A stretch of 61,666 nt of DNA from a virus (lineage: Duplodnaviria; Heunggongvirae; Uroviricota; Caudoviricetes): positions 1-61,666 of IMG/VR virus record IMGVR_UViG_2874968258_000001. One strand, written 5' to 3'. The position numbers and the translations under genes are program-made. Positions within the stretch are counted from its first letter, which is position 1. Each line of letters starts with the position of its first letter. Below, one piece after another: positions 364-60,457 of the stretch. The notes below the pieces were generated by a model. It had not been told where the DNA came from. It made no database searches and worked only from the letters and a program-made list of their open reading frames with translations.

Positions 364-424
364 GGTAGCCTGAGTTTAACGGACGCTCCTTCCTGAAATA
401 GAATGGCATCAGAAGGAGCTAATA

Positions 425-727
425 ATGAGCAGAAAAACCCAACGTTACTCTAAAGAGTTCAAAGCCGAAGCTGTCAGAACGGTTCTTGAAAATCAACTTT
501 CGATCAGTGAAGGCGCTTCCCGATTATCTCTTCCTGAAGGCACTTTAGGACAATGGGTTACCGCCGCCAGAAAAGGGCTCGGTACTCCTGGTTCCCGCAC
601 GGTGGCTGAACTGGAATCTGAAATTCTGCAACTGCGTAAGGCGTTAAATGAAGCTCGCCTTGAGCGAGATATATTAAAAAAAGCAACAGCGTATTTTGCA
701 CAGGAGTCGCTGAAAAATACGCGTTAA
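425..727 (+). CDS. IS3-family transposase OrfA (HTH)
   Basis: 100-aa ORF MSRKTQRYSKEFKAEAV... with leucine-zipper-like C-terminus; A7 slippery run at 676-682 inside the ORF. Confidence 0.85.
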   Translation: MSRKTQRYSKEFKAEAVRTVLENQLSISEGASRLSLPEGTLGQWVTAARKGLGTPGSRTVAELESEILQLRKALNEARLERDILKKATAYFAQESLKNTR

Positions 728-762
728 TCGAACAATGGCGACAACAATTTCCCATTGAAGCG

Positions 763-1581: not shown

Positions 1582-1643
1582 AAAAAGAACAAATGGTAGT
1601 GTCCGCTATTGCCAGTACACCTCAAGGATAAGGCTAAAAAATC

Positions 1644-3140: not shown

Positions 3141-3496
3141 TGGCAAAGATCGCCGGAACCTGTTTTTTTAAAGTGGATGGTCAGCAGTTATCGCTGACAG
3201 GTGGCATTGAAGTGCCGATGAACACCAATGTCCGGGATGACATCGTCGGCATGGCAGGGGATGTGGATTACAAGGAGACCTGGCGGTCACCTTACGTTAA
3301 GGGCACGTTTAAAGTGCCCAAAAACTTTCCGGTCGACAAAATTACCACCTCAGACCAGATGACGATTACCGCTGAGCTGGCAAACGGCATGGTGTATGTG
3401 CTTTCGGCGGCATGGCTGCACGGAGAGGCTAATCATAATGCCGAAGAAGGCACGGCAGATCTTGAATTCCACGGCGAAGAGGGAGGGTATCAGTAA
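3140..3496 (+). CDS. Phage tail tube protein
   Basis: 118-aa ORF starting on the sheath stop, in canonical sheath-tube order. Confidence 0.65.
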   Translation: MAKIAGTCFFKVDGQQLSLTGGIEVPMNTNVRDDIVGMAGDVDYKETWRSPYVKGTFKVPKNFPVDKITTSDQMTITAELANGMVYVLSAAWLHGEANHNAEEGTADLEFHGEEGGYQ

Positions 3497-3923
3497 TGGC
3501 AATGAACGTTACAGAAATAGTTTTAAAAAAACCGGTGACAGCGCATAACGAAATGCTGCATGTGCTGGAGTTGCGCGAGCCCACGTATGACGAAATCGAG
3601 GCGCTGGGTTTTCCTTTCATTATTTCCGGTGAAGGCAGTATTAAACTGGACAGCCAGGTGGCACTGAAATATATCCCGTTGCTGGCGGGGATCCCGCGTT
3701 CATCGGCGGCGCAGATGGCAAAACTGGATATTTTTAAGACCAGCATGCAGATCCTGCGTTTTTTTACCCAGTCGGAGACGGGAAGCACCTCCGGAAACGA
3801 CTCTACAATGTTGCCTGGTTCTGGAAACTGAATCCACTGGAGCTGCGACGGGGGGCTGTTTCGCAGTTTACAGAACTGGAAGCCGAGGCCGTCCGCATTA
3901 ACGAGGAGATGAAGCATGGCTGA
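3496..3923 (+). CDS. Tail assembly chaperone; short form ends 3831, long form by programmed -1 frameshift at T7 run 3759-3765 and ends at 3923
   Basis: Slippery cgT TTT TTT aligned to the zero frame; the -1 frame stays open for ~53 codons (FFYPVGDGKHLRKRLYNVAWFWKLNPLELRRGAVSQFTELEAEAVRINEEMKHG) and ends just inside the tape measure start; position upstream of TMP is conserved in tailed phages. Confidence 0.55.
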
Positions 3924-5865: not shown

Positions 5866-6097
5866 GTTCTTTTTTTGTGGTGAAAGATGAGGCAAAATTA
5901 TCGCGTAACATGCTAACAATGGAGTTTGTTTTGTGATAAAGCCATTTTTAATGACGGTTGCAATATTAACCTCTTGCTGTGCTCAGGCGAAAATACTAAC
6001 AAATGAGGAGATTGTTTCACGATTTATTAGTAACGTTAAAACGGTGATGCTGCCAACTTACTGATTTAGTGTATGATGGTGTTTTTGAGGTGCTCCA

Positions 6098-6373
6098 GTG
6101 GCTTCTGTTTCTATCAGCTGTCCCTCCTGTTCAGCTACTGACGGGGTGGTGCGTAACGGCAAAAGCACTGCCGGACATCAGCGCTATCTCTGCTCTCACT
6201 GCCGTAAAACATGGCAACTGCAGTTCACTTACACCGCTTCTCAACCCGGTACGCACCAGAAAATCATTGATATGGCCATGAATGGCGTTGGATGCCGGGC
6301 AACTGCACGCATTATGGGCGTTGGCCTCAACACGATTTTACGTCACTTAAAAAACTCAGGCCGCAGTCGGTAA
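6098..6373 (+). CDS. insA: IS1 InsA
   Basis: 91-aa [43 protein letters not shown]... Confidence 0.95.
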
Positions 6374-6795
6374 CCTCGCGCATACAGCCGGGCAGTGACG
6401 TCATCGTCTGCGCGGAAATGGACGAACAGTGGGGCTATGTCGGGGCTAAATCGCGCCAGCGCTGGCTGTTTTACGCGTATGACAGTCTCCGGAAGACGGT
6501 TGTTGCGCACGTATTCGGTGAACGCACTATGGCGACGCTGGGGCGTCTTATGAGCCTGCTGTCACCCTTTGACGTGGTGATATGGATGACGGATGGCTGG
6601 CCGCTGTATGAATCCCGCCTGAAGGGAAAGCTGCACGTAATCAGCAAGCGATATACGCAGCGAATTGAGCGGCATAACCTGAATCTGAGGCAGCACCTGG
6701 CACGGCTGGGACGGAAGTCGCTGTCGTTCTCAAAATCGGTGGAGCTGCATGACAAAGTCATCGGGCATTATCTGAACATAAAACACTATCAATAA
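6292..6795 (+). CDS. insB: IS1 InsB frame (made as InsAB' by -1 frameshift at the A6C motif)
   Basis: 167-aa ORF overlapping insA in the -1 frame; identical copy present in the second IS1. Confidence 0.9.
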
Positions 6796-7198
6796 GTTGG
6801 AGTCATTACCCGTTAAAACATCTGCAGATAATGACGTTGACTTGGATACAGATGGATTCAGACAACTGAGGATATCGTGCCCATCCCCTTCTGCCAGCGG
6901 TGCGATTATATTGAGAAAAGCTTCTTATGAATTCGGCAAAAGTATAGGTGTATTTGATTTTGCAAACAATGCATCACCAGCGACGATGACATTTTTGATC
7001 CCAATATATAAAGATGATGATTTTGATTCAGATACTGTTGGTTTTACATTTGCGTTCAAGATGCCAAGAGGCCAGTTTTTTGTAGATGTAAAAGAAAACG
7101 GGAATATCAGAGCTGGAGTTAATGTTAATGGCGAGTCGGGAGTGACCTACGAAAATTGCAAATTGAATATGAAAGATATTAATGATGATTAATATATA

Positions 7199-7226
7199 AG
7201 CCGCCAGAAATTGGCGGTTTTTTTAT
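7199..7226 (+). terminator. Rho-independent terminator after the disrupted lipoprotein gene
   Basis: Hairpin CCGCCAGAAATTGGCGG followed by T7. Confidence 0.6.
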
Positions 7227-7238
7227 AGTGGAGACAGT

Positions 7239-8630
7239 ATGGACTTACCTTCTTTACCTTCTCTTTCTTCACTCTTTTCTGCATCTTCAGGTATCAATTG
7301 GCGCGATAATCTTTACGACGCTTCATTTCGTGGCGTTCCGTTTTCGGTGGAGAGCGACGAGGGTTCGTTCGGACGCCGCGTTCAGGTCCATGAATACCCA
7401 AACCGTGACAAACCGTACACGGAAGATCTCGGGCGTGCCACGCGACGGCTGACGATTAATGCGTATCTCGTTGGTGATGATTACGCAGAGCAGCGCGACA
7501 GGCTGATTACAGCGATTGAAACCGCCGGGCCGGGGACGCTGATCCATCCGCAGTTCGGTGAAATGCAGGGCTGTATTGACGGGCAGGTGACCGTTTCTCA
7601 CTCCGGCACTGAAGGCCGTATGTGCCGGGTTTCATTTCAGTTTGTTGAGAGCGGGGAACTGTCATTTCCGGTCGCCGGAGCTGCAACCGCCAGAAAACTG
7701 GAGGAGTCGTCCGTATTCCTGGATGAGTTGATTGAAGACATGTTCGGCGATTTTGATCTCGCGGGAATACCGGACTTTATTCAGAACGATGTTATTGCCC
7801 GGACGACCGATATGCTGGGAACCGTTCAGACAGCTTTCAAAATGGTTAATTCGGCTGTTTCTGCCGGAGCGAGACTACTGCAGGGCGATTTATCCGTCAT
7901 TCTGATGCCGCCGTCGGTTGCCAGTGATTTTGTGCATACGTTGCAGGATACCTGGCGGGCCGGAACCCGGCTGGTGGATAACACACAGGATCTGGTGCAG
8001 TCCATAACGACAATGTCCGGCATTACGCTGGACCCAGGACTGGCACCGCGTGCGGTGTGGCCCACAGATTCCGCATCGGTTATCAGGCAAAAACAGCAGA
8101 CAAACCTTGTGGCTGCTGTCATCCGGACGACGGCAATCAGCGAAGCCACAAGGGCGGTCACTTCACTGCCACAACCCGGAAGCCTGGTGAAAAATCAGCA
8201 GGCGGTTGTGGCTGTTGGTGGTTCCACTGAACGTCAGTCCGATATTATTCACGTTTCTCATCCGGCACTTGACAGCGTGGCAGCCAGCACAGGACAGGAT
8301 GAGAGAGCGCAACCACCCACGCGGGAAAATCTCACCATCATACGCGAATCGCTGAACGCGGCGATTGAACAGGAGCTCAGGCGTACGGCGGATGACAGGC
8401 TGTTTTTTCAGCTGACGTCATTACGTACAGAACTGAACCGGGATATTCAGGCGCGTCTGGTTCAGACGGAGGAAACCGCAGAGCGAACGCCAGCGGAAGT
8501 TCTGCCTGCGCTTGTTCTGGCTGCGTCATGGTACGACGATGCGTCCCGTGAAACTGATATCCTGGATCGAAATGCCATCTCTCATCCGGGCTTTGTTCCG
8601 GTCAGGGCATTAAGGGTACCCGTCAGATGA
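7239..8630 (+). CDS. Mu gp43-like DNA circulation / tail protein
   Basis: 463-aa ORF between TMP and baseplate genes in Mu-like order. Confidence 0.65.
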   Translation: MDLPSLPSLSSLFSASSGINWRDNLYDASFRGVPFSVESDEGSFGRRVQVHEYPNRDKPYTEDLGRATRRLTINAYLVGDDYAEQRDRLITAIETAGPGTLIHPQFGEMQGCIDGQVTVSHSGTEGRMCRVSFQFVESGELSFPVAGAATARKLEESSVFLDELIEDMFGDFDLAGIPDFIQNDVIARTTDMLGTVQTAFKMVNSAVSAGARLLQGDLSVILMPPSVASDFVHTLQDTWRAGTRLVDNTQDLVQSITTMSGITLDPGLAPRAVWPTDSASVIRQKQQTNLVAAVIRTTAISEATRAVTSLPQPGSLVKNQQAVVAVGGSTERQSDIIHVSHPALDSVAASTGQDERAQPPTRENLTIIRESLNAAIEQELRRTADDRLFFQLTSLRTELNRDIQARLVQTEETAERTPAEVLPALVLAASWYDDASRETDILDRNAISHPGFVPVRALRVPVR

Positions 8631-9709
8631 ATGATACCGTTTTACTTCGGGTTTCCGGTCGCGAATGGGGCGGCTGGACATCCGTCCGTATCAGTGCGGG
8701 CATTAACCGTATTGCCCGGGATTTTAATGTTGCCATTACCACCCGCTGGCCCGGAAGCCGGGATTATCAACCCCGGATAAAAAATGGTGAGCTGGTTGAA
8801 GTGCTTATCGGGGATGAGCCTGTGCTCACCGGATATGTGGAGGCACTACCGCTTCGTTATGACGCCAGCAGCGTCAGCATGGGAATTGTCGGGCGAAGCA
8901 AAACAGCCGATCTGGTTGACTGCTCTGCTTTGCCACTCCAGCAGAGCGGAAAAAACCTGCTCAGAATAGTCAGTGAACTGGCTGCGCCATTTGGCATCAC
9001 CGTTGTTGATGCTGGCGTGCCGCAGACAGCGGTGATTGATGCCCAGCCGGAACACGGCGAAACCGTTGCCGATTGTCTTAACCGGTTACTGGGGCAGGTT
9101 CAGACGCTGGCTTATGACGATGAATGCGGGCGACTGGTTCTGGGAAAACCCGGAACAGGTAAAGCGGCGACGGCGCTGGTGCTGGTGCTGGGAGAGAATA
9201 TTCTTTCCTGTGACACGGAAAGAAGCATCAGAGAGCGGTTTTCTGAATATCAGGTCAGTGGGCAGCGCCCGGGCAACGACGATGATTTTGGTGAGGCCAC
9301 CATTGCCGCAATACGTCAGACCATTCAGGACAGTGGCGTGACCCGTTATCGCCCTTTGTTGATTCAGCAGTCAGGCACAGCAACGACAGCAACCTGTAAG
9401 GCCCGTTGTGAATTTGAAGCGCGCCAACGGGCTGCGCTTACCCGTGAGACAACATATACGGTTCAGGGCTGGCGGCAGGGCAGTGGCGCGTTATGGCGTC
9501 CGGGGTTATCTGTCATCGTTTTCGACCCGCTGAATAATTTTGATAATGATGAACTGGTGATCGCAGAAGTTACCTATAACCAGGACGACCGGGGCACGAC
9601 GACTGAATTACGGGTTGGCCCGGCAGATGCTTATCTCCCCGAGCCTGTTACCGCCAGGAAGAAAAAAATGTTGAGGAGGATTTCTGATGAACGGGTTTTC
9701 TCTTCGTAA
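8627..9709 (+). CDS. Mu gpP (gp44)-like baseplate hub protein
   Basis: 360-aa ORF overlapping the previous stop; position in baseplate cluster. Confidence 0.65.
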   Translation: MNDTVLLRVSGREWGGWTSVRISAGINRIARDFNVAITTRWPGSRDYQPRIKNGELVEVLIGDEPVLTGYVEALPLRYDASSVSMGIVGRSKTADLVDCSALPLQQSGKNLLRIVSELAAPFGITVVDAGVPQTAVIDAQPEHGETVADCLNRLLGQVQTLAYDDECGRLVLGKPGTGKAATALVLVLGENILSCDTERSIRERFSEYQVSGQRPGNDDDFGEATIAAIRQTIQDSGVTRYRPLLIQQSGTATTATCKARCEFEARQRAALTRETTYTVQGWRQGSGALWRPGLSVIVFDPLNNFDNDELVIAEVTYNQDDRGTTTELRVGPADAYLPEPVTARKKKMLRRISDERVFSS

Positions 9710-10220
9710 TCTGATTTCCCGGGCTGTCATCACGGCGGTGGATTCCGCCAGAAAGTGTCAGTCTGTAGGGTTGAAAATGATAGCCGGAGATCAGAAACAA
9801 CACGTTGAGCACCTTGAACCTTATGGTTTTACATCTGCCGCACAGAACGGTGCTGAGGGCGTTGCTTTATTTCCGGCGGGCGATCGTTCTCATGGTGTGG
9901 TTGTGGTCGTGGCTGACAGACGTTACCGGCTGAAAGGACTGAAACGTGGGGAAGTGGCGCTTTATGACGATCTGGGACAGTCCGTTGTCCTGACCCGTTC
10001 CGGTATTGTGGTGGACGGGGCCGGGAAGGCCATAATTTTTAAAAACGCGCCTAAAGCGCGCTTTGAAATGCCAGTCGAATCCACCGCCGATATTACTGAC
10101 AATTGCGACAGTGGCGGACTCAGCATGCAGCAAATGCGGCAGGCCTACAATGCCCACAAACATACCGAAAATGGTGATGGTGGCGGGATCACTGACACGC
10201 CGGATCAACCGATGGGCTGA
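9687..10220 (+). CDS. Baseplate assembly protein V-like (Mu gp45-like spike)
   Basis: 177-aa ORF in baseplate cluster. Confidence 0.6.
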   Translation: MNGFSLRNLISRAVITAVDSARKCQSVGLKMIAGDQKQHVEHLEPYGFTSAAQNGAEGVALFPAGDRSHGVVVVVADRRYRLKGLKRGEVALYDDLGQSVVLTRSGIVVDGAGKAIIFKNAPKARFEMPVESTADITDNCDSGGLSMQQMRQAYNAHKHTENGDGGGITDTPDQPMG

Positions 10221-10225
10221 AAATC

Positions 10226-10636
10226 ATGATGATTAATGTTAACGGGCGACCCGTGTCGACCGGGGCTTCGATCGACCTTCTGACGCGTGCTGTGATTATT
10301 TCGCTTTTTACATGGCGGCGTGCCGGGCGTGATGATGCACCACGGATATTTGGATGGTGGGGGGATACCTGGCCTGCGGTTCAGAATGATCGCACGGGGT
10401 CGCGTTTGTATCTGTTGCGACGCAGCAAGCTGACAAATAAAACCCCGCAGCTTGCCAGAGATTATGTCCGTGAGGCGCTGGCGTGGATGGTGGAGGATGG
10501 TGTTGCTTCCCGTCTTGATATTAACGCTGTCCGGACCGGGACAGACTCGCTGGCACTTGCCATTACCATTTACCAGCGTGACGGCAATATTCACAACATT
10601 ATTTTTGATGATATCTGGAGTGAACTGAATGGCTGA
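10226..10636 (+). CDS. Mu gp46-like baseplate protein (gp25/W-like)
   Basis: 136-aa ORF in baseplate cluster. Confidence 0.6.
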   Translation: MMINVNGRPVSTGASIDLLTRAVIISLFTWRRAGRDDAPRIFGWWGDTWPAVQNDRTGSRLYLLRRSKLTNKTPQLARDYVREALAWMVEDGVASRLDINAVRTGTDSLALAITIYQRDGNIHNIIFDDIWSELNG

Positions 10637-11237
10637 CAGTCAGTTTTATCGCCCCGGCCTCCCGCAACTTATTTCTATGATCCGGAGCGATTTATTAACC
10701 CGCTTTGAGCAGGATACGCTGCTTCGTCGTATGGATGCGGAAGTGTATGCCCGTGTACAGGCTGCAGCCGTACACACGTTGTACGGGTATATCGATTATC
10801 TTGCCAGAAATCTGTTACCGGACGTGTGTGATGAAGACTGGCTGTACCGGCACGCCAGAATCAAACGCTGCCCGCGAAAAGAAGCGGTGGCAGCCCGGGG
10901 ATTTGTGCGCTGGGATGGCGTAGAGGGGACGCCGGTATTGCCAGCGGGAACGCAGATCCAGCGTGATAATCAGGTGACCTTTACCACGACGGCGACGGTG
11001 ACCGCAGCCGATGGTCTTCTCCGGGTGCCTGTTGTGGCAGACGAACCGGGATCGGCGGGGAATACGGATGATGGTATTGCCATGCAACTGGGAACACCCG
11101 TCAGTGGTCTGCCGTCCACAGGGTACGCTGACACCATTACAGACGGTGAAGATATTGAAAATCTGGAAATATGGCGTGCCCGCGTTATGGAACGTTATTA
11201 CTACATTCCACAGGGGGGCGCAGGTAATGACTCCAAC

Positions 11238-11741
11238 TTATTGATAGTGTTTTATGTTCAGATAATGCCCGATGACTTTGTCATGCAGCTCCACCGATTT
11301 TGAGAACGACAGCGACTTCCGTCCCAGCCGTGCCAGGTGCTGCCTCAGATTCAGGTTATGCCGCTCAATTCGCTGCGTATATCGCTTGCTGATTACGTGC
11401 AGCTTTCCCTTCAGGCGGGATTCATACAGCGGCCAGCCATCCGTCATCCATATCACCACGTCAAAGGGTGACAGCAGGCTCATAAGACGCCCCAGCGTCG
11501 CCATAGTGCGTTCACCGAATACGTGCGCAACAACCGTCTTCCGGAGACTGTCATACGCGTAAAACAGCCAGCGCTGGCGCGATTTAGCCCCGACATAGCC
11601 CCACTGTTCGTCCATTTCCGCGCAGACGATGACGTCACTGCCCGGCTGTATGCGCGAGGTTACCGACTGCGGCCTGAGTTTTTTAAGTGACGTAAAATCG
11701 TGTTAAGGCCAACGCCCATAATGCGTGCAGTTGCCCGGCAT
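11238..11741 (-). CDS. insB: IS1 InsB frame
   Basis: Same translation as the first copy; ORF track shows the part from an internal Met (11238..11615). Confidence 0.85.
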
Positions 11742-11935
11742 CCAACGCCATTCATGGCCATATCAATGATTTTCTGGTGCGTACCGGGTTGAGAAGCGGT
11801 GTAAGTGAACTGCAGTTGCCATGTTTTACGGCAGTGAGAGCAGAGATAGCGCTGATGTCCGGCAGTGCTTTTGCCGTTACGCACCACCCCGTCAGTAGCT
11901 GAACAGGAGGGACAGCTGATAGAAACAGAAGCCAC
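11660..11935 (-). CDS. insA: IS1 InsA
   Basis: Identical 91-aa InsA translation on minus strand. Confidence 0.95.
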
Positions 11936-12487
11936 TGGAGCACCTCAAAAACACCATCATACACTAAATCAGTAAGTTGGCAGCATCACCGGGGGCGCAG
12001 ACCCTGATTATGTTATCTGGGCGAAAGAAGTTCAGGGTATTAACCGTGCATGGACTTTCAGACACTGGAAAGGCACTGGAACGGTTGGCGTGATGGTGGC
12101 GACAAACGATCCGGAACGCCCGGCCCCGGATGAAAGCGTGATTAACGCAGTCAGGGACCACATCCTTCCTCTGGCACCTGTTGCCGGAAGCGGATTGTAT
12201 GTATTCGGTGCCACAGAAAAAGTCATCCCGATGACGATTGCATTATCGAAAGACACACCGCAGATCAGGACTGCAATAAAAGCAGAGCTGAATGCACTGA
12301 TGTTACGGGATGGTGTGCCAGAGGGGCGTATGTATCTGTCCAGAATCAGTGAGGCCATCAGTTTGTCTGCTGGTGAAGTGGCCCACCGGTTAATCGTCCC
12401 TTCATCGGATATTGACCTGGGGGAGACCGAGCTTCCGGTGCTCGGCGAGATCACCTGGCAGGCTTATGACCCGGCAAGGAGTAAATA

Positions 12488-13078
12488 ATGGATTCGTTAC
12501 AGGATGATTATACAAAGCTGCTGTACGGACTGATGCCGCCGGGGCCTGCATGGTCAGATACCGACGGTGTACTTGACGGTCTGGCACCATCGCTTGTGCG
12601 TGTTCACCAGCGGGCTGATGAACTGGTGATTGAAATCGATCCCGGTCAGTCCACAGAGCTGATTGAACGTTATGAAGAATTGTATGGTTTACCTGATTCC
12701 TGTTCCCCTGTCGGAACCCAGACATTACGCCAGCGTCAGCAACGTCTTGAAGCAAAAGCCAATGTGGCTGGTGGCATAAATGAGCAGTTCTTCCTGGATC
12801 AGCTTGAGGCGCTGGGATATACCGGCGTAACGATCGAACAGTTCCAGCACTTGGATGCAAGCCCCGATCCGGAATGGGGAGATCGCTGGCGTTATTTCTG
12901 GCGTGTGACGTTGCCGATGGATGCCGGTGCTCAGTGGCAGACATGCACGGACGCCTGCAACACACCGATCCGGACGTGGGGGGATACGGTTGCGGAGTGC
13001 GTGATTAATAAATTATGTCCGTCACACACCGTCGTTTTATTTTCCTATCCAGATGAGGATGAAGATGCACAGGATTGA
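12488..13078 (+). CDS. Mu gp48-like tail protein (YmfQ/DUF2313-like)
   Basis: 196-aa ORF between baseplate J and tail fibre. Confidence 0.6.
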   Translation: MDSLQDDYTKLLYGLMPPGPAWSDTDGVLDGLAPSLVRVHQRADELVIEIDPGQSTELIERYEELYGLPDSCSPVGTQTLRQRQQRLEAKANVAGGINEQFFLDQLEALGYTGVTIEQFQHLDASPDPEWGDRWRYFWRVTLPMDAGAQWQTCTDACNTPIRTWGDTVAECVINKLCPSHTVVLFSYPDEDEDAQD

Positions 13079-14105
13079 TACGCTGACTGCGGTAAAAGAT
13101 AAGTTTGGTCCGGGTAAGAACGGATTTACTGACGGAAATCTTCGCACAGGACGTCTTGCTACCTGGCTGAACAGTGCCATGTGGAATGCCATTCAGGAGG
13201 AAATCTGTGGTGTCATTGAGAAGGCCGGGATAGAACTGAATAAAGAAGAACACGACCAGCTATATAAGGCTATATTATTGCTGGTGGGCGGTGCAATTAA
13301 CGAAGAGGCATTGCTGATAAAAAATAACCTTTCGGATGTGGAAGACAGGGATGAGGCTGTTGAAAACCTCGGATTAAAACCCACGGTGGATAAGGCAAAA
13401 AATGCCGTTCAGCGTGATGGCGACACCATGACCGGAGAGCTGAAAATCCGTGGTGTTAATGCGCTGAGGATTTTCAACGAAGCTTTTGGCCTGATTTTTC
13501 GTCGTTCGGAAGAGTGCCTGCACCTTATTCCCACCAGTGAAGGTCAGGGGGAAAATGGCGATATTGGTCCCCTGCGCCCGTTCACCATTAATCTGCGGAC
13601 GGGTGAAATATCCATGTCGCATAAAGTGTCTGTTGGCGGTGGTTCGCAGGTCAATGGTGCGCTGGGTATCGGCGTTCAGAACGCCCTGGGGGGGAATTCA
13701 ATTGTTCTTGGTGATAATGACACCGGATTCAAACAGAATGGTGATGGCCTGCTGGATGTTTATGCCAATAGCGTGCATGTGTTGCGTTTTCAGAGTGGCA
13801 GTATCCAGAGTAATAAAGCTGTAAACGTTACAGGACGGGTAACACCGTCAGACTACGGAAACTTTGATGCCCGTTACCAGCAGCGAAATGGTGGCGTGCA
13901 GGATGTGCGGTATGGTTATGAAATGTATTACACCCCCGGCAGTAACACCGTTTCGTGGACATTTCGCTCACCTTCGGGACACGGGCTGTCAGGGATATCG
14001 ATATCGGATACCGGCCGTAACTCAGCGGATAACGTCAACGGCGTGTATTACCGACCGCTGCAAAAACTGATTAATGGCACCTGGTATAACGTAGCGAGTA
14101 TTTAA
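13065..14105 (+). CDS. Tail fibre protein
   Basis: ~347-aa ORF, Gly/Asn/Ser-rich C-terminal region, followed by a tfa-type gene. Confidence 0.65.
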   Translation: MHRIDTLTAVKDKFGPGKNGFTDGNLRTGRLATWLNSAMWNAIQEEICGVIEKAGIELNKEEHDQLYKAILLLVGGAINEEALLIKNNLSDVEDRDEAVENLGLKPTVDKAKNAVQRDGDTMTGELKIRGVNALRIFNEAFGLIFRRSEECLHLIPTSEGQGENGDIGPLRPFTINLRTGEISMSHKVSVGGGSQVNGALGIGVQNALGGNSIVLGDNDTGFKQNGDGLLDVYANSVHVLRFQSGSIQSNKAVNVTGRVTPSDYGNFDARYQQRNGGVQDVRYGYEMYYTPGSNTVSWTFRSPSGHGLSGISISDTGRNSADNVNGVYYRPLQKLINGTWYNVASI

Positions 14106-14107
14106 CA

Positions 14108-14653
14108 ATGTTGCATTTAAAAAATATTACGGCAGGTAATCCGAAAACCGCGGAATAATATCAGCTGACAAAACAGTATGATGTCACCTGGCTTTTTTCG
14201 GAAGACGGCAAAAACTGGTATGAAGAACAGAAGAACTTTGCCAGTGACACCATAAAAATGGTTTACACCGGAGACGGGCGCGTGGTGTGGGTCGGTAAGG
14301 ATGTGACAGGCATTGAACCCCGTAACGCCAGTGTTATTGAAGTTCCTGATATTACCGCCAACCGCCGCATTACCGCGCCGGGTTACTGGTTTTACCGCAA
14401 TGATGAATTTGTCTTTGACTACAGACTCAAAGCGGAAGATGAGCGTGATGCCCTTCTGGCTCAGGTCAGTGCCCGGACAGGGGAATGGGAAGAAGACCTG
14501 CTGCTGGGGCTAATCAGCGACGAAGACCGGGAAAAACTGAAAGCGTACCGTATTTACGCGAAATCGCTGCAGGCGATGGATTTCAGCACCATCACTGATA
14601 AATCCTCATATAACGCCATTGAATGGTCCGTCTCTCCGGAAGGTTCTTCCTGA
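14108..14653 (+). pseudogene. Tail fibre assembly protein with in-frame ochre stop at codon 17 (14156-14158)
   Basis: ATG 14108 gives MLHLKNITAGNPKTAE-stop-YQLTKQYDVTWLFSEDGKNWYEE...; the frame is continuous with the annotated ORF 14258..14653. Confidence 0.55.
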
Positions 14654-14676
14654 TTTAATTTATCGCGAGAAAAACT

Positions 14677-15945
14677 ATGTCTGTAGTGATATCAGGTGCG
14701 CTGACTGATGGCGCAGGCATCCCCATGTCCGGATGCCAGATTATTCTGAAATCCCGTGTAAACACCTCAGAAGTGGTGATGCGTACCAGGGCTGATGTAG
14801 TGACCGGAAATAACGGTGAATATTCGTTTGAGGCACAGGTCGGAAAATATTGCGTGTATCTGAAACGGGACTGGCGCGACGAGTACTGTGTTGGCGACAT
14901 TGCTGTATACGACGACTCAAAGCCCGGCACGCTGAATGACTTTCTGATTGCTCCTGATGAGGGCGACCTGAAACCGGATGTCGTCAAACGCTTTGAGGAA
15001 ATGGTGGCGCAGGCGCAGCAGAGCGCCGGGGCCGCAGCCGGAAACGCACAGCAGACGGCGCAGGATGTGGCGGCAGCCGCAGGTTATGCCCGCGCAGCAG
15101 AGCAGGCCAAAAATGACATTGATGCTGCGCTGACCGGCACTCTGAAAACGGCTAACCATCTGTCTGAAATCGCAGCAGCAGGCGAAAAGGCACAACAGAA
15201 GTCCCGGGATAATCTGGGGCTGAAAAGTGCGGCCACGATGGAAGCACAGAGCGACATTTACGACCGGACAAAAGGCCGTCTGGCGATACCCGGCGCATTC
15301 GGCTTTGGGTGTGCTTTTCTGCCTGAAGATGTTATCCGTTTTGACACTAAGAGTGATTTCCTGGCCTGGGTAAGGAATGCGCTGCCAGGTGAATATTCCG
15401 TTGCTGGCCCCTACGACATCATCATACCCGACACACGGTTTGAAGGGGTGCTCAGCATCCGGTGGACTGATGCACGCCCTGAGACAACAGAACCGAGGTA
15501 CAGAGCCAAATCCCTTACTTTTTACGGCATTAACGGCCCCATTTATCACACCCGCTACTGCTACTGGCCCATATCCAGACTGACTGGCTGGGTGAAAATA
15601 AATATAACCACAGAAGATATTATTTACAGAATCGTGGCGAGCTCTGTCTGCAACAGATGGGGAGACCCTGACATTGGCGGGCTGATTATTGCTGCGTACC
15701 AGGGAGAAGCTGACGGTGATAAAGTCATCAGACTTGTCAGGGGGCAGTCATACAGAGGCTCACGACTGGGACCGGTGGGGATTTCAGTGCCCAGTACTCC
15801 CACCGGAACGTATATAGCATCCCCACAATTTTTCATTACGGGATGTTCAGAGCATTCATTACCGGGGTCATATAGCGCCCTGTCCGGGGTGCCGGATGCT
15901 CATGTCTCTGGCGCAATGCCCGGGCTTTTTATTCGCACATCGTGA
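14677..15945 (+). CDS. Side tail fibre protein with lambda Stf-like N-terminal domain and a different C-terminal domain
   Basis: N-terminus MSVVISGALTDGAGIPMSGCQIILKSR...[13 protein letters not shown] parallels the stf gene at 54196 ([27 protein letters not shown]...[13 protein letters not shown]). Confidence 0.65.
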   Translation: MSVVISGALTDGAGIPMSGCQIILKSRVNTSEVVMRTRADVVTGNNGEYSFEAQVGKYCVYLKRDWRDEYCVGDIAVYDDSKPGTLNDFLIAPDEGDLKPDVVKRFEEMVAQAQQSAGAAAGNAQQTAQDVAAAAGYARAAEQAKNDIDAALTGTLKTANHLSEIAAAGEKAQQKSRDNLGLKSAATMEAQSDIYDRTKGRLAIPGAFGFGCAFLPEDVIRFDTKSDFLAWVRNALPGEYSVAGPYDIIIPDTRFEGVLSIRWTDARPETTEPRYRAKSLTFYGINGPIYHTRYCYWPISRLTGWVKINITTEDIIYRIVASSVCNRWGDPDIGGLIIAAYQGEADGDKVIRLVRGQSYRGSRLGPVGISVPSTPTGTYIASPQFFITGCSEHSLPGSYSALSGVPDAHVSGAMPGLFIRTS

Positions 15946-15955
15946 GGAATGCACC

Positions 15956-16519
15956 GTGGAAATTAAAAAAATCATTAATCCCCGTTATACCGAAAGTGGC
16001 GCAGTAGACTGTGACGTTTTTTTTGACGACAGGGACCTGGCAGTCCCCTACACAGCCACCGCTGATGATGTCGCACCGACGGGTCAGCAAATCTGGCAGG
16101 AACTGCAAAGTGGCAAATGGGGTGAGATAGCCCCATTCACTGTGACACCAGAAATGCTGGAAGCGGCCAGAGAGGCCAGACGTCAGGAAATTGAAGCATG
16201 GCGCACAGAACAGGAGGCGAAGCCGTTCACGTTTGAATGGAATGGTCGTATCTGGAATGCTGGCCCCGACTCACTGGGCCGCCTGTCCCCGGTAGTCATG
16301 CTGGCAAAATCTGTCACAGCACAAACGCATATGGCGTGGGGTGATGCCGATAATCAGCAGGTGAAACTGTCGATGCCGGAACTGGAAGAACTGGCGGCAG
16401 CAATGGTGCAGGCGCAGGTCGATCGCAACGATGAGATTTATCGCCGTCAGCGTGAAATGAAAGAGGAGCTGAGTGGTCTGGAGGATTTGGGAACAATTAG
16501 AGCGTTTGATGTTACGTAA
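15956..16519 (+). CDS. Putative tail fibre assembly / chaperone protein
   Basis: GTG start with GAGGA 8 nt upstream, immediately after the stf-like stop; family assignment uncertain. Confidence 0.4.
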   Translation: MEIKKIINPRYTESGAVDCDVFFDDRDLAVPYTATADDVAPTGQQIWQELQSGKWGEIAPFTVTPEMLEAAREARRQEIEAWRTEQEAKPFTFEWNGRIWNAGPDSLGRLSPVVMLAKSVTAQTHMAWGDADNQQVKLSMPELEELAAAMVQAQVDRNDEIYRRQREMKEELSGLEDLGTIRAFDVT

Positions 16520-16565
16520 TTGGTAAGCTGCATCGTGTTAAATTGTTACCCTTATTTACAACTAG

Positions 16566-16600
16566 AAAAGCCTCTGACTTCATAATCAGAGGCTTTTTTG
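16566..16600 (+). terminator. Rho-independent terminator
   Basis: AAAAGCCTCTGA...TCAGAGGCTTTTTT hairpin plus T-run. Confidence 0.65.
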
Positions 16601-16727
16601 AAATGCACGTGCATTTTGCGTGTATATTTTTGTCTTTTTCTGGTCCGCTTACTGTCTGGTCAGTGTCCGTAAGTGACTGTTTTTATAGTCTCTGTCCGGT
16701 TGCAGTCCTGTCAAAAGTGGTGGAGCT

Positions 16728-16762
16728 GGCGGGAGTTGAACCCGTGTCCGAATATTTGCAAT
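16728..16762 (-). other. Partial copy of ssrA (tmRNA) 3' end; candidate prophage attachment-site core
   Basis: Minus-strand TTCGGACACGGGTTCAACTCCCGCCAGCTCCACCA matches the E. coli tmRNA 3' terminus as I recall it, with one mismatch; similarity stops upstream, so it is a fragment. Confidence 0.6.
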
Positions 16763-16827
16763 GCGTTGATTTATAACGAATAAAATTTAAAGTTGGTTCT
16801 TACGGCTCTTTTGCGGATATTTTACTA

Positions 16828-17646
16828 TCAATTCGTAGTCCTGCCATATTTACGTTTTTTCTTGCGGTTTGTTTCTGGTTTCTTCTCTCGGTTATTGTCT
16901 ACTTTTTCATGTATATCCATATTGAACCAAGAAGCATGCGAAACCTCACTTAATGGAAATATGATACTGGTATCAACTCCATCAAGATCGTTGTAATCAT
17001 TTGAAAACAGGACCCTTAGTGTGTCCTTGTCCCTGTAACCAGATATGATTGGGCTAATAGAAATTTCAAGGTTAGGGCCTTGTTTTTCGTTTGGCTCACT
17101 AATCATGTTAACTGTTCCGACATATACTTTGCGGCATTTCAGGCTTATCAGTACCGGTCTGTTTGTAGTCGCTGAATCAAAGAATAGCTGACCAAGTGAG
17201 CCATCAGACAACAGTTTTTCCAACTCATTAAGCCTGATTAGTTGCTTTGCGAAATTGATAGAAATTGCATTATTGGATGCAGAACTAATAGTTTTTGCTG
17301 CCACAAACATACGAAATTTGCATATCTGCAACCAAATAAAAGCAACTCCACAAGTCGCCACTGATAGCAGGATGAGCCATGATGTTATCCTGTTTTCTTT
17401 AGGGTCTGCACTACCATCAATAAGATGTGATACCCATGTGACCAGTGTAAGGCTTGGTATAAAGTACTTGGTTGCATACGCCAGCACGACTGCAACAATG
17501 AACGAGTACACACCGTACGTGGCCACCTTCATATAGAGAAGCTGGCCGTCGTAACGGTGGAGTCGATAGAATAATTTGATGTTATGGGGCGATGTAACCA
17601 GTAAGGATCCACTTACTAAAAGTGGAATGATCAGCAATGCAAACAT
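16828..17646 (-). CDS. Hypothetical membrane protein, three N-terminal hydrophobic helices plus ~160-aa soluble domain with basic tail
   Basis: 272-aa ORF; hydrophobic segments at residues ~2-17, 41-62, 87-108; AT-rich codon usage; 4 bp downstream of the 82-aa ORF. Confidence 0.55.
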   Translation of the reverse strand: MFALLIIPLLVSGSLLVTSPHNIKLFYRLHRYDGQLLYMKVATYGVYSFIVAVVLAYATKYFIPSLTLVTWVSHLIDGSADPKENRITSWLILLSVATCGVAFIWLQICKFRMFVAAKTISSASNNAISINFAKQLIRLNELEKLLSDGSLGQLFFDSATTNRPVLISLKCRKVYVGTVNMISEPNEKQGPNLEISISPIISGYRDKDTLRVLFSNDYNDLDGVDTSIIFPLSEVSHASWFNMDIHEKVDNNREKKPETNRKKKRKYGRTTN

Positions 17647-17649
17647 TTG

Positions 17650-17898
17650 TTAGTCGTCATTGTCCATTGAGTTAGCTTTAGCGGCTGCAACAGCTTTTGC
17701 ATCCTGCTCGACGAATTTTCTAGCTGCTTTCCTAAGCTGAGTGATTTTTTCTGGGTCAGTAGATGGGTCTACAATAACTGCACCACGCCCTACGACCTTG
17801 ATGTTTTTAACACCAGATTTGTTCAAACGATCGGCCATGGCTTGTCCGCCTTTGACCAAATCATTCAGCCCAAACATCTTCATGACTAGTTCTGACAT
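17650..17898 (-). CDS. Hypothetical small hydrophilic protein, first gene of the cargo operon
   Basis: 82-aa ORF co-oriented and nearly abutting the membrane protein gene. Confidence 0.5.
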   Translation of the reverse strand: MSELVMKMFGLNDLVKGGQAMADRLNKSGVKNIKVVGRGAVIVDPSTDPEKITQLRKAARKFVEQDAKAVAAAKANSMDNDD

Positions 17899-18193
17899 AA
17901 AGACCTCCTTTCAGTCCCCCCAATGTATCCTTTTGAGGCATTTATTGCTCCCCGCAGAACGGGGCGCGGGATTTTACCATAATCTACGTACTGGCTCCAA
18001 GATTTCCCGCGTGTTCCTAGTACTAGGACAGCTGCCTGAGTACCAAGTTCACCTATAACATATATACTTGGTTCGAATTTTTGCAAGGTAAAAAGTGCCT
18101 TATGTTTAAGTATGTATGATGTGGATATGACGAACATAACCACATCACAAATAACTTTTTATCAGGTTTCAGTGGCTATTTGTTCGGGCAGCA

Positions 18194-19369
18194 TCAAGCC
18201 TGTTTTGTATCATTAGTATTTTTAGCGGTATGTCCGTCATATGCAGCAAGGTAACTGCCATAGTGACGAAATAGCATTTCTGGTCCCTTATGGCCCATCT
18301 GGCCTGCAAGCCAGAACAGGTTCGCACCACGGCTGATATGGCTGGTGGCGAATGTATGCCTGGTCTGATATGGGTTACGGTACCGGATACCTGCTTTACG
18401 TAAGGTTGGTATCCACGCTTTTTTCCTTATCGCATCGGCGCTGGCCCACGGTTTGTTTGTCTTTGGATCTTCAAAGACAGTAGCATCCTTCATGAATGTA
18501 AATGGCTTCTGATTTATCAGCGCCAACATTGCCTCTTCTGTCAGTTCAACTTTACGAGTACCGGCTTTTGTCTTTGTTCCTTTGATAACACCGACAACAC
18601 TTGCGCTCTGGACATGGGCAGTTTTTCCAACAAAGTCGATATCACGCCATCGAAGGGCACATAATTCAGAACTACGCAGGCCTGTATGTATAGCGAACCG
18701 GAACAGATTTTCCCATTGTTTGTTTCCGGCTGCTGCTAGTAATGCATCAACTTCTGCTGGTGATAGCGGATCAACCACGTAGCTGCTTTCTGCTTCTGAC
18801 TTATCACTTTGGTAGCGCGAAGCAGTTACCAACGATACGGGGTTAATTTGAAGTACCCCATCGGTTACGGCTTCATCAAGTGCTGACCGCAGGAAAGATA
18901 ACTGGTTGCGAATTGTTTTTAAGGTCGTTTTCTGGCTTTGAATCCACGCTTTCAGGATTGCTGGTGTTAATTCACTTGCAGGGCAAATGTGGAGTGAGGC
19001 TAACGCACTACGGCATTTTTTATAACCACCAATCGTAGAGGGTGAAAGTTTTCTCGTTTCGCAGATTTCAAGGTATTCGTCCAGGTACATTTTTACCGTT
19101 TTGCCTGCAGCAGCATTACCAAAAATTTTCAAACGAGCAGAACGGGGAAAATATTCCGCATAAATGAATGTTCCCCTTTCGATCTTATTATGAATTTCGC
19201 CGAGTGTGCGCTCGGCGTATTTTATGTTCTTTGGTATTACTTCCAGATTGGAAAGAGGCTCACGACATTTAACTCCTTTGTAGGTGAAAGTTATATTGAT
19301 CGTTTCGCCCTGGCGGTGTTTCCTGATTGTTACGCCGCGCGGTAGTTTGAGCAGTTTTGTCTGGCCCAT
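18194..19369 (-). CDS. int: Phage integrase (tyrosine recombinase)
   Basis: 391-aa ORF with R...HxxR...Y catalytic motifs (LRSSELCALRW, YQTRHTFAT, LFRHYGSY). Confidence 0.9.
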   Translation of the reverse strand: MGQTKLLKLPRGVTIRKHRQGETINITFTYKGVKCREPLSNLEVIPKNIKYAERTLGEIHNKIERGTFIYAEYFPRSARLKIFGNAAAGKTVKMYLDEYLEICETRKLSPSTIGGYKKCRSALASLHICPASELTPAILKAWIQSQKTTLKTIRNQLSFLRSALDEAVTDGVLQINPVSLVTASRYQSDKSEAESSYVVDPLSPAEVDALLAAAGNKQWENLFRFAIHTGLRSSELCALRWRDIDFVGKTAHVQSASVVGVIKGTKTKAGTRKVELTEEAMLALINQKPFTFMKDATVFEDPKTNKPWASADAIRKKAWIPTLRKAGIRYRNPYQTRHTFATSHISRGANLFWLAGQMGHKGPEMLFRHYGSYLAAYDGHTAKNTNDTKQA

Positions 19370-19536
19370 TTTGCAACCTCACTAAGATCAATCCACCTCT
19401 CCTTAACGCCTTCAACCTTTAAAACCTGAACACCTTCACGCCAAACACCGCGCTGTACACGTTTGTTTATTGCTTCAGGAGTTTCGCCAGTTTCTTTGCA
19501 ATAAGTTGAGATTGGAACACAATCGAGGTTCAGCAT
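19330..19536 (-). CDS. xis: Excisionase-like protein
   Basis: Small basic ORF overlapping the int start, canonical xis-int arrangement. Confidence 0.55.
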   Translation of the reverse strand: MLNLDCVPISTYCKETGETPEAINKRVQRGVWREGVQVLKVEGVKERWIDLSEVAKWARQNCSNYRAA

Positions 19537-19595
19537 ATGTTTCTCCACTTAGCCCGCTGCACACGGGCAGTAATATCAAATTCCAGTCCTGATAA

Positions 19596-19811
19596 TTAAT
19601 TTTGTTCCCTGGTTGCTACCTGTTTTATTGGCCTGATGCTGTCCAGTAGCAGACGGCGACGCATGTTAGGTGCCCCCCAACGGTAACCAGTCTTTTTGTC
19701 GTAGGATTCACAACGTCCGGCAACCCAGGACGTTTCAGTGGAATGTAATTTCATCCGCTTTTCACCGTCTCGGGTGATAACAATTCCTGTATGAGTTTTT
19801 ATCACGCTCAT
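19596..19811 (-). CDS. Hypothetical early-left protein (YfdT-like position)
   Basis: 71-aa ORF in operon. Confidence 0.35.
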   Translation of the reverse strand: MSVIKTHTGIVITRDGEKRMKLHSTETSWVAGRCESYDKKTGYRWGAPNMRRRLLLDSIRPIKQVATREQN

Positions 19812-20170
19812 TTCTTAGTCTCTGGTGCTTTCGGCATTACTGCCCAGTGAGTGATATTGACGTTTTCAAGGTCCCCGACCTGAAATGTCCACTGCCATTC
19901 TCCGGTTTCTTTTTGTCCCCAGGTGTACCAGAGAGAACGCCAGCCAATCAGCCAGCCTTCTCCGTTAGCATCAAATAACAGAACACTTTCATTTGCTGGT
20001 GGCAGTTCAGCTGACACTGGTATTATTTTGCTTTCCAGTGCCGCACATTTAGCTTCAAGCGCGTCGAATTTACGTACCAGGTACTCAGCATTTGTTTCGT
20101 TCACTTTCAGATCTCGCGGTACACATTTCCCGCGAAGAAACCCTTCCATTTCGAAAACACTCATGCGCAT
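19808..20170 (-). CDS. Hypothetical early-left protein (YfdS-like position)
   Basis: 120-aa ORF, overlapping stop/start with neighbours. Confidence 0.45.
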   Translation of the reverse strand: MRMSVFEMEGFLRGKCVPRDLKVNETNAEYLVRKFDALEAKCAALESKIIPVSAELPPANESVLLFDANGEGWLIGWRSLWYTWGQKETGEWQWTFQVGDLENVNITHWAVMPKAPETKK

Positions 20171-20697
20171 TTGCGTAACTCCGATAATTCGTTAAAGCGT
20201 TCCATAAACATCCCGTAGGCATGGCCTGGAGCCAGTGGAATCACGTTGAACATCTCTGTTGCCGGGATACCTTCCAGCACAGGCCAGAAAGAGCCATCAT
20301 CAAGCCCGAGATCGCGGCGTTCGGTTGCCAGCATGATGAGATCGGCATATTTCACTGGCGTGCTCATAACAGGAGGTAACCCGTATTTCTCACGGATTAC
20401 GGCGTCTATTTTTTCTTCCATCCGTTTATAGTCAGGAAGAAGTCGTTTCAGTGGTGCGGGGATGTCCTGGCAATACGCTTCTGTTGCATCATGCATTAAC
20501 GCTTCAAAAGCAAATTCCTGCGGCACCAGCTGGCTGCAAAGAACCGCATGTTGGGCGACGCTGTAGAAGTGCGAAAGATGACCGGCAAAGCGACAGATAT
20601 TTGAAAGGGAAACCGCGATATCGTTAATATCGATGTCGTCTTTATTTATCCTGTCATAATAAAAATGCTTCCCGGAAAAAGTTTTAATAAATGACAT
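20161..20697 (-). CDS. HD-domain phosphohydrolase (YfdR-like 5'-deoxynucleotidase)
   Basis: H...HD motif (LMHDATEAY) and downstream D; ~178 aa from the internal Met. Confidence 0.65.
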   Translation of the reverse strand: MSFIKTFSGKHFYYDRINKDDIDINDIAVSLSNICRFAGHLSHFYSVAQHAVLCSQLVPQEFAFEALMHDATEAYCQDIPAPLKRLLPDYKRMEEKIDAVIREKYGLPPVMSTPVKYADLIMLATERRDLGLDDGSFWPVLEGIPATEMFNVIPLAPGHAYGMFMERFNELSELRKCA

Positions 20698-20824
20698 TTT
20701 GTTCTCCACGTATATGCGCTGCACCGTGCTGAATTCTGGTAAAAGGAAGCCATCACCATCCGGCGATTATTGAGTAAATTATGTTTCCATAAATGCCCCC
20801 GCAGGGGCATTTGCAGTAATGAAA

Positions 20825-21649
20825 TCAGGCGGTGAAAGTACCAATAAAGGTTTCTACTTTGCTGTCTTTAAATTTCTCAACAAGCAGATCACGAAATTCG
20901 TTAGCCATTTCTTCCTGCACCGCTTCCAGCTGAATAATGCGCAGAACCAGTACAGGACGATCGCCAGTGATAATGCTGAGGCGTAATTTAAACGGACGTT
21001 CTTTAAGGCCTTCAAACGGAACGCATTTAAATTCAAATGCCACTGGCATAATGTCTTTAGTCTTCGCTTCGACAGACTCCATCAGGGAGCGTTTGCCGCT
21101 GAAGTCATTATCTTCAAAATCAGCGGTCTGGTTTGCTTCAATCGTGATTTTACGGACCGCCGCAGCCGCTTTTGTTGCCTGAATGGTGTCACCATTAGCA
21201 TCAAAGCCCACAAGGTAGTCGGCCCAGTCTTCAATCCATTCTGCCAGTGACTTCTGGGAGTTACGCTCGCCGTTAACAGACAACAGGGCAGAGAACGGTG
21301 CTGTCTTTTTCAGTTTGAGAGTGGCGGTGTTATCTGCGTGACCTGGTTCATCAATAGTACCCAGGTTAAGCACACTGACGGCTCGCATATTATCAGCATC
21401 GATAAAGCAGCGGGTGCCTTCATCTGCAAGATCTTTAGAATAACGGGTAAAGTCATCGATGCTGGCAGTGGAAAGCGCACCACGGAAACGGAAGCGATTT
21501 AAATTAAATTTTTCCAGATCATGAATGCGGAAATTCTCAGGCAATGCCACAGCATCGGCACCAATCTTACTGATAATTTCATTAACACCCTGAGCAGAAA
21601 TAAGGGCATGGATTTGATTAATTGCGGTTGCGTCTAAGTTCTGAGACAT
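20825..21649 (-). CDS. YfdQ-like (DUF2303-type) prophage protein
   Basis: 274-aa ORF, size and order as in CPS-53-type early regions. Confidence 0.55.
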
Positions 21650-24306: not shown

Positions 24307-25139
24307 ACAGTTTAACGGCAAATAACCGTTTGTCGCAACAGCTGGTGGTCAGTGTCGCTGAACACCTGTTGTTACGGCATGAATGCAGATTACCAAATCA
24401 CCTGGCTGTAAGTAACCACAGAGAACTTTACCTGACTGTGGGGGGCGAGTTGTGCAGGAACTTAACCGCTGGTTTCGTGATGGAAGAGGGCTTTATGTCC
24501 ATGTTATTCGTTGGGAGCCAGAAACACAGCGCGTTATCTATCTTCGCAAAGACTACCCGCATGAGTGCTTTAGTCCTTTGTGGAAATTCAGGCGTGATTT
24601 TGTTGAGTGTGAAGGACCACCAGCACATTGATTCTGCCATTCCGGGACGTTACACTGTTCAGGCACCTTATAAAGCGGGTGCCGGGATTGGCGTCCTGGA
24701 ATTGATCAAGGCGATATATGACGCGCCAGCGTCTTTTTTATCGTCCGCATTTGCTCACATCAAAGTTATGGTGGGCTGGGCGGGGGCATCGAAAGATGCG
24801 CCGGTTTCCTTGATCACCGGTTACGCCAACCCCGTTCAGTTCACCACCAGCGAAATTGGCGTTTCCGGTGGTGGAAGTATTTCACCGATCAAGGAGGCTG
24901 CCATCATGGCTACTGTCCCAGCCCTCACTCGTCTGAATGATGAAGACTTACATAAACTCAGTTATGTAACAACTGCACTACGTGCTCTGCGCAAGGTAAC
25001 TCTTTCGGATCCGCAGGCGCATCAGGTTCTGGTAGAAACCCTTCTTAACTTGCAGGCTGAACGTATCCGTTTGGCGGATAAGGCTAATTTTCATATTCAC
25101 CGTCTCCTGAATATCAGCGGAGGGCATCGTCATGCTTAA
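24303..25139 (+). CDS. Hypothetical protein (YdaU-like position)
   Basis: 278-aa ORF, too long to be chance, overlapping stop/start with the upstream gene. Confidence 0.35.
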   Translation: MNSLTANNRLSQQLVVSVAEHLLLRHECRLPNHLAVSNHRELYLTVGGELCRNLTAGFVMEEGFMSMLFVGSQKHSALSIFAKTTRMSALVLCGNSGVILLSVKDHQHIDSAIPGRYTVQAPYKAGAGIGVLELIKAIYDAPASFLSSAFAHIKVMVGWAGASKDAPVSLITGYANPVQFTTSEIGVSGGGSISPIKEAAIMATVPALTRLNDEDLHKLSYVTTALRALRKVTLSDPQAHQVLVETLLNLQAERIRLADKANFHIHRLLNISGGHRHA

Positions 25140-57809: not shown

Positions 57810-58628
<819 letters not shown>

Positions 58629-60423: not shown

Positions 60424-60429
60424 GAACAT

Positions 60430-60452
60430 CTCCCGGCCTTTTAAGCCGGGAG
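60430..60452. terminator. Bidirectional hairpin between convergent M and R genes
   Basis: CTCCCGGC-CTTTTAA-GCCGGGAG. Confidence 0.5.
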
Positions 60453-60457
60453 TCAGC

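Follow-up and report, generated by a model that had tools for sequence, protein, structure and literature searches.

The 61,666-nt stretch of DNA analysed here (hereafter, the window) carries a displaced copy of the 3' end of ssrA, the tmRNA gene, at 16718-16752 on the minus strand, exactly where two prophage-derived elements meet. To its left, at 1-16717 on the plus strand, lies the late-gene half of a myovirus-type prophage remnant (element A). To its right is a lambdoid prophage (prophage B), whose int-side arm starts at 16753 and which, on the plus strand, extends through 61666 and runs 234 nt beyond the window end. We consider it highly probable (about 95%) that this core sequence is the ssrA 3' end displaced when B integrated site-specifically, by means of its tyrosine integrase, into the tmRNA gene beside the older remnant A. 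For prophage B the core is the int-proximal att site, and for element A it is the ssrA 3' end that formerly abutted it.

A fragment of ssrA at the boundary of two elements

A pattern search found the 35-mer TTCGGACACGGGTTCAACTCCCGCCAGCTCCACCA as a single exact copy in the 61.7-kb window, reading on the minus strand from 16752 down to 16718. We aligned it to the intact ssrA genes, annotated or called by ARAGORN, of the CP-1639 record, E. coli AST81, STEC308, AR_0081 and S. sonnei 53G. It corresponds to the last 35 nt of the 363-nt tmRNA gene (positions 329-363) with one mismatch, GACACGGG in the copy versus GACGCGGG in intact ssrA. This mismatch is numbered G336A, a numbering that we verified through T357, which has been placed in the acceptor stem (PMC10107115). 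The first of the five T-stem pairs is lost through the substitution, and folding agrees with this loss. Similarity to ssrA breaks off directly 5' of TTCGGAC. An initial annotation of this DNA had already recognized a tmRNA 3' end with one mismatch and an upstream stop of the similarity, and the alignments confirm both points. The sequence and the strand that it gave were also right, and only its coordinates (16728-16762) have to be corrected, as they were shifted by 10 nt and covered 25 of the 35 nt.

The core is a fragment of ssrA and not a gene, in line with its earlier description as an att-type duplicate. ARAGORN called neither a tRNA nor a tmRNA gene in the 61.7 kb of the window, and no tmRNA was detected there at the Rfam gathering thresholds, at which IS009, C4 and isrK were the only families reported. 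A permissive Rfam scan returned a local tmRNA match at 16718-16845 scoring 15.8 bits, against a gathering score of 47 for RF00023. A functional tmRNA gene would be expected to reach that score or to yield an ARAGORN call with a tag peptide, and the core copy does neither. Moreover, searches with the 35-mer, a 26-mer and a 16-mer, with 2-3 mismatches allowed, found no second core copy in the window.

The bare resemblance to ssrA would by itself also suit a decayed pseudogene or duplication of this gene, or a chance match, with no relation to integration. Chance is excluded by the shuffled controls, since the 35-mer had no match in 100 dinucleotide-preserving shuffles, even at 3 mismatches. A decayed pseudogene or duplication was likewise rejected, as the similarity stops abruptly and does not fade gradually. 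In addition, the 35-mer begins and ends at exactly the base where one of two independently mobile elements has its boundary, and these elements are seen separately in other genomes. The alignment with 53G, the comparison of occupied and unoccupied genomes and the junctions of AR_0081, all described below, refute an origin unrelated to integration, to which we assign a negligible probability.

Junctions in genomes with and without prophage B

When loci were looked up by the exact 207-aa product of the last gene of A, two kinds of locus were returned. In HE616528.1, the genome of S. sonnei 53G (PMC5447701), and in 7 others, an intact tmRNA gene (tag ANDENYALAA) comes directly after A, with smpB next to it. 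The order in CP032523.1 and CP044151.1 is A, core, 272-aa ORF, 82-aa ORF and int, and there is no tmRNA gene within this A-side junction locus. The two loci carrying A and B are 100% identical to window positions 10896-21519, whereas the A-only loci are 99.95% identical to the window only up to 16756, the 5' edge of the core. The alignment with 53G makes this switch from A to either ssrA or B visible base for base. Their identity to 53G and the shared IS insertions indicate that CP032523.1 and CP044151.1 belong to the S. sonnei lineage. STEC308 likewise has an intact A-like prophage directly against ssrA, and it matches the window through 16756. Among 5,426 complete E. coli genomes, a collection without Shigella, the A/core/B junction was found in none at >=80% coverage of 14500-19500.

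The far end of B was reached in CP032523.1 by a lookup with a B tail-fibre protein. Since the intact ssrA lies outside the window, this junction was read from CP032523.1, a genome without any difference from the window in the 10.6 kb compared (100% identity). There, an intact tmRNA gene lies 234 nt past the EcoRII-type gene, and next come smpB, ratA, yfjF and IS4, as in 53G. The core-to-core distance in this genome is about 45.2 kb. A tmRNA gene with the tag ANDENYALAA lies 234 nt past the last gene of B in CP032523.1, AST81 and AR_0081 alike. In E. coli AR_0081, B is found alone, in the order glaH flank, core (A allele), B, ssrA (G allele) and smpB. Beyond the displaced core of AR_0081, at about 7930-7995, the sequence resembles the R-M-side arm of B itself (GATTGGACGGTGTAAGGAC...AAAAACAGGAAGTTA), and looks like a fossil arm of an earlier occupant of the ssrA site. 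The intact ssrA and the second core that the initial annotation had proposed to look for are thus present at the far end of B in CP032523.1, and the empty site is represented by the A-only strains of the same lineage, such as 53G.

Four junctions can be compared in these genomes. The state before B is that of S. sonnei 53G, with ssrA body, core (G336) and A arm. The first product, ssrA body, core (G336) and B R-M arm, is found in CP032523.1, AR_0081 and AST81, and the second, B int arm, core (A336) and A arm, is the sequence of the window. The fourth is the distal site of the single B lysogen AR_0081, with B int arm, core (A336) and flank. At the sequence level, these junctions form the exact reciprocal-recombination set predicted for attP of B and a resident ssrA. 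The alleles segregate in the same manner, as G336 is present in all intact ssrA genes and A336 in all copies joined to the B int arm. On the side of B, identity ends at the CCA (ATCATG vs CTTTTG). Since G stays with the gene, A stays with the phage arm and identity ends at CCA, strand exchange is placed within the 27-nt block of perfect identity CGGGTTCAACTCCCGCCAGCTCCACCA (16718-16744, minus strand), which comprises most of the T arm, the acceptor 3' strand and the CCA. The crossover is bounded to these 27 nt.

This block includes the T loop flanked by the inverted T-stem halves, an arrangement that provides the overlap and the core-binding sites for many tDNA-specific integrases. Crossover sublocations at the T loop of tDNA integration sites were reportedly described by Williams in 2002/2003. 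By analogy with such sites, the crossover probably took place in the 7-nt T loop. Sites in the "T-stem region" are one of the two main classes in Islander (PMC4383910). A repeat search for arm-type sites recovered only short two-copy families (GTCnnTGTCCG, twice). GGAC-rich motifs were seen by eye in both arms and are at most candidate integrase arm sites.

In the proposed course of events, attP of B would have consisted of the ssrA-like 35-mer with G336A, placed between an int-side arm and an R-M-side arm. Its target would have been the intact ssrA of a chromosome of the S. sonnei lineage, with the decayed remnant A already directly downstream. Strand exchange within the 27-nt identical block would then yield two products. 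One would be a regenerated functional ssrA, formed by the ssrA body, the core with G and the R-M arm of B, now 234 nt beyond the right edge of the window. The other would be the window sequence itself, in which the int arm of B, the core with A and the A arm follow each other.

B could instead have been imported by homologous recombination of a larger segment, through transduction or conjugation from an E. coli B-lysogen, with the core merely inherited. The 100% identity of B to E. coli prophages fits such an import, and the enzyme that made a junction is invisible to a sequence-only analysis. However, the flanks are lineage-specific right to the core, with the A arm on one side and smpB-ratA-yfjF-IS4 on the other, both as in 53G. 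Homologous exchange would therefore need one crossover inside the 27-35-nt core. Even in that event, integration in the donor would have made the core, which would remain an att-site copy. We consider an import of this kind very unlikely, and site-specific integration of B at the resident ssrA remains the reading that we prefer.

Element A, prophage B and the order of their arrival

Element A was delimited by Pfam/PHROG hits and by comparison with the intact A-like prophage of STEC308. It carries contractile-tail genes, namely the sheath (1644-3140) and then the tube, baseplate genes, Mu gp45/46/48-like genes and tail-fibre genes that end at 16519, together with a tape measure gene (3916-5865). 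The prohead protease gene (1-363) is cut by IS600 (approximately 361-1624) at codon 120 of 216 and is directly joined in this way to the start of the tail sheath. At this IS600, about 3.5 kb of capsid and head-completion genes are missing that are present in the intact STEC308 relative. The IS600-truncated protease gene occurs in 674 collection blocks of the index, with the same layout in 4/4 loci shown. Two IS1 copies (6042-6810 and 11223-11991, the second splitting the baseplate J gene) are inverted relative to each other and lie 4.4 kb apart; the segment between them may also have been inverted by them.

On the left, A is cut off just outside the window by an IS4 whose end lies about 90 bp before window position 1 in CP032523.1 and which borders bamD, rluD, yfiH and clpB. 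No integrase or early genes of A were found in the window or nearby in CP032523.1. The 10 kb to the left of the window in CP032523.1 contain no distal core copy for A, and IS4 and bamD are found there instead. With neither an integrase nor a distal att site nearby, A is a stranded remnant that cannot excise. By the gene order of E. coli K-12, the bamD side and the ssrA-smpB-recN side presumably lie in opposite orientations. This arrangement would suggest an IS4-mediated inversion with one breakpoint inside A, and a second IS4 is located between yfjF and bamE. The other end of such an inversion may hold the int-side half that A lacks here, together with a third core copy.

The ssrA-proximal arm of A (16543-16717, minus strand) comprises the 175 nt between its last gene and the core. 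This arm follows ssrA in A-only strains and is identical in S. sonnei 53G and relatives. It contains a hairpin at 16566-16597, 120 nt downstream of the core, with 12-nt perfect arms, 14 pairs when folded, a free energy of -21.4 kcal/mol and z = -5.0. The hairpin has A and T runs on both sides, and the region is conserved in CP-1639. Although very stable on folding, it was not flagged by a simple terminator scan. This candidate is probably a bidirectional terminator that serves the tail-fibre operon and, in A-only strains, ssrA.

Prophage B was recognized by its identity to the prophages of AR_0081 and AST81, and its ends are seen in AR_0081 and CP032523.1. The window is 100% identical to the E. 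coli AR_0081 prophage over 16718-41600 and to E. coli AST81 over 40000-61666. More than 1,700 E. coli genomes match the B side, and the best ones are 100% identical, with matches starting at window positions 16715-16725, that is, at the core. B is free of IS elements within the window. Its tyrosine integrase (391 aa; 18194-19369, minus strand; Pfam Arm-DNA-bind_2, Phage_int_SAM_5 and Phage_integrase) is transcribed towards the core. It is accompanied by an excisionase (72 aa; 19330-19548, minus strand; phrog_2917 excisionase, E = 1.6e-45), and both genes lie 1.4-2.8 kb from the core. The core-int interval holds two cargo ORFs of unknown function on the minus strand (16828-17898), one of 272 aa (16828-17646; phrog_3630) and one of 82 aa (17650-17898; phrog_35771). 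Neither has a Pfam match, and both are annotated as hypothetical proteins in E. coli. A possible third ORF of 85 aa lies in the same interval, at 17886-18143. The three ORFs occupy the moron position between att core and int.

Up to the window end, B further contains lambda-type head and tail genes, Lom and tail fibres. Its ssrA-proximal end is formed by a LEM-3-like GIY-YIG nuclease (57810-58583, minus strand), a Dcm-like methyltransferase (58990-60423, plus strand) and an EcoRII-type endonuclease, the last gene of the window (60458-61666, minus strand). The exact sequence of this endonuclease is found in more than 10,000 collection blocks of the index. In the 8 loci shown it almost always adjoins ssrA-smpB, and the phage or island modules on its other side differ. 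These data suggest that the nuclease and restriction-modification genes at 57810-61666 are a conserved att-arm cassette exchanged among elements.

Several RNA families map to B. In the early region, Rfam places isrK (24663-24739) next to a C4 antisense RNA (24764-24851), and in E. coli 3PT, the annotated copy of B has a gene for an ash-family protein just upstream of the corresponding site. We assume that this region may be a P1/P7-like c4-type antisense immunity/antirepressor module within a lambdoid prophage. The Rfam IS009 match (57499-57697, 229 bits) lies inside a tail-fibre assembly gene (57156-57740), and what this family describes may be a fragment of prophage coding sequence rather than a separate sRNA.

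The order in which the two elements arrived has to be weighed separately. The junction of B arm, core (A) and A arm alone fits either order, as the same product would arise if B had entered ssrA first and A had later integrated into the displaced core at the distal end of B. However, A-only genomes of the same lineage, with a 99.95% identical A, have A against intact ssrA. Moreover, A shows heavy decay, with its IS600, two IS1 copies, the IS4 truncation and no integrase nearby, and the truncated protease is widespread (674 blocks). A recent arrival of B is indicated by its 100% identity to E. coli prophages and by the lack of IS elements in it here. We therefore give the reverse order a very low probability. 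The reading that we favour is that A came first and B later, into an ssrA that A would have regenerated earlier. A, with its IS600 scar, is common to many genomes of the lineage and is also found without B, and B is IS-free and identical to E. coli prophages, so that B would have integrated later.

As to the overall layout, the initial annotation had seen a myovirus-like remnant on the left and a lambdoid prophage on the right, and the gene content of both elements agrees with this view, including the contractile-tail genes, IS600, the two IS1 copies and the IS4 truncation of A, as well as int and xis near the core and the lambda-like head and tail genes of B. It had placed the core between the last late gene of A and the int of B, which is its position, with three small ORFs separating core and int. 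Its suggestion of tandem elements at ssrA stands in so far as the elements are stacked there; they are one complete prophage beside a stranded remnant, not two complete elements.

Relation to other ssrA-integrated elements and significance

The closest phage record for the int-xis region of B is Citrobacter rodentium phage phiNP. The attP and attB of this phage are the same 25-bp sequence, TGGTGGAGCTGGCGGGAGTTGAACC, at the ssrA 3' end, as determined from sequenced junctions of E. coli K-12 lysogens, and its integration regenerates ssrA (PMC6456863). We found that this att site is exactly present at window positions 16718-16742, inside the 27-nt block that bounds the crossover. The integrases of phiNP and B are identical at 352/382 positions (92%), the excisionases at 66/72 (92%), and both elements share the layout of xis, int, cargo gene(s) and core. 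With orthologous Int and Xis and an identical 25-bp core, B is predicted to carry a phiNP-type integration module; for the activity of its own integrase the evidence is comparative, from the reciprocal junctions and from the genomes with and without B. The cargo beside the att site differs, as phiNP has an AAA-family ATPase there and B the 272-aa and 82-aa ORFs of unknown function. The cargo in this slot seems to vary and may include defence genes. Outside the module, too, the two phages differ: phiNP was assigned to Myoviridae by an earlier study reported in PMC6456863, and B has lambda-like siphovirus tail genes.

The attP of phiNP contains the same 35-nt ssrA-like stretch as B, again with a single mismatch in the 5' T-stem strand, which is G338T in phiNP and G336A in B. 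That this mismatch is a selected feature of the attP family, and not drift, seems to us improbable. If it were selected, it could keep phage-borne or displaced copies from adopting the fold of a tRNA-like 3' domain or from undergoing the processing of one. It could also fix the left boundary of strand exchange, with the host always keeping its own T-stem 5' strand.

In Islander, an element in a tDNA is defined by a regenerated target gene, a displaced 3' fragment in the same orientation and an integrase inside (PMC4383910). One end of B has an intact regenerated ssrA in CP032523.1, AST81 and AR_0081; the core and ssrA are both on the minus strand in window-oriented loci; and the tyrosine integrase gene (18194-19369) lies inside the element. 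Islander also describes several elements stacked at one tDNA, with the tmRNA gene as the most enriched target (PMC4383910). A tandem array in that sense needs an integrase and a fragment for each member, whereas here only B has both and A has lost both locally, with no integrase of its own in the window and no core copy in the 10 kb upstream in CP032523.1.

A related arm is found in CP-1639, an Stx1 prophage at ssrA of E. coli O111 (AJ304858.2), whose tail-fibre end abuts an intact ssrA-smpB. Its arm after ssrA is about 83% identical to the A arm (16543-16717). The att arm is all that CP-1639, a lambdoid Stx phage, has in common with A and its myovirus tail genes, which is in agreement with module exchange.

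In other E. coli, CP4-57-like islands fill the slot beyond B. In 3PT, the integrase gene of this island lies directly downstream of the core on the same strand, whereas B has cargo ORFs before int. We take the K-12 CP4-57, with intA right after ssrA, to have the same layout as the 3PT island. The island in the 3PT slot beyond the B core encodes an integrase-domain protein and a NACHT-domain protein, and P4-like satellite pseudogenes (psu, ogr/delta) are part of it. Some E. coli, of which 3PT is an example, have three layers of elements stacked at ssrA. The cryptic prophage CP4-57 is integrated at the ssrA 3' end of E. coli K-12, and its excision deletes T357 and inactivates tmRNA (PMC10107115). 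In several other ssrA elements, the displaced copies also have deletions that damage tmRNA on excision, and a table of ssrA-integrated elements is given in the same work (PMC10107115). Unlike CP4-57 and these other elements, B has a displaced copy with the complete CGCCAGCTCCACCA.

With int, xis and both att sites, B should be excisable. Excision of B would restore the 53G-type A/ssrA junction with a wild-type tmRNA 3' end, since the displaced copy keeps the full CGCCAGCTCCACCA and its removal should leave ssrA wild type, followed by the A arm. In B-lysogens, the A arm, with its strong hairpin 120 nt after the CCA, is swapped for the R-M arm of B, a change that could alter tmRNA 3' processing or termination, although we consider such an effect improbable.

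Altogether, the core is an ordinary, already known kind of feature from which nothing new in biology follows. That elements integrate at the ssrA 3' end, regenerate the gene and stack at this site has been described for more than 20 years; elements stacked at tDNA/ssrA sites were reportedly described by Williams in 2003. The main value of the finding lies in correct annotation. It shows ssrA itself to be intact a short distance beyond the window and delimits, to the exact base, a complete and probably inducible 45-kb prophage, B, and the adjoining remnant A. B brings an EcoRII-type restriction-modification pair, a GIY-YIG nuclease and cargo genes of unknown function. It is polymorphic within the S. 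sonnei lineage, and its presence or absence is usable as a strain marker.
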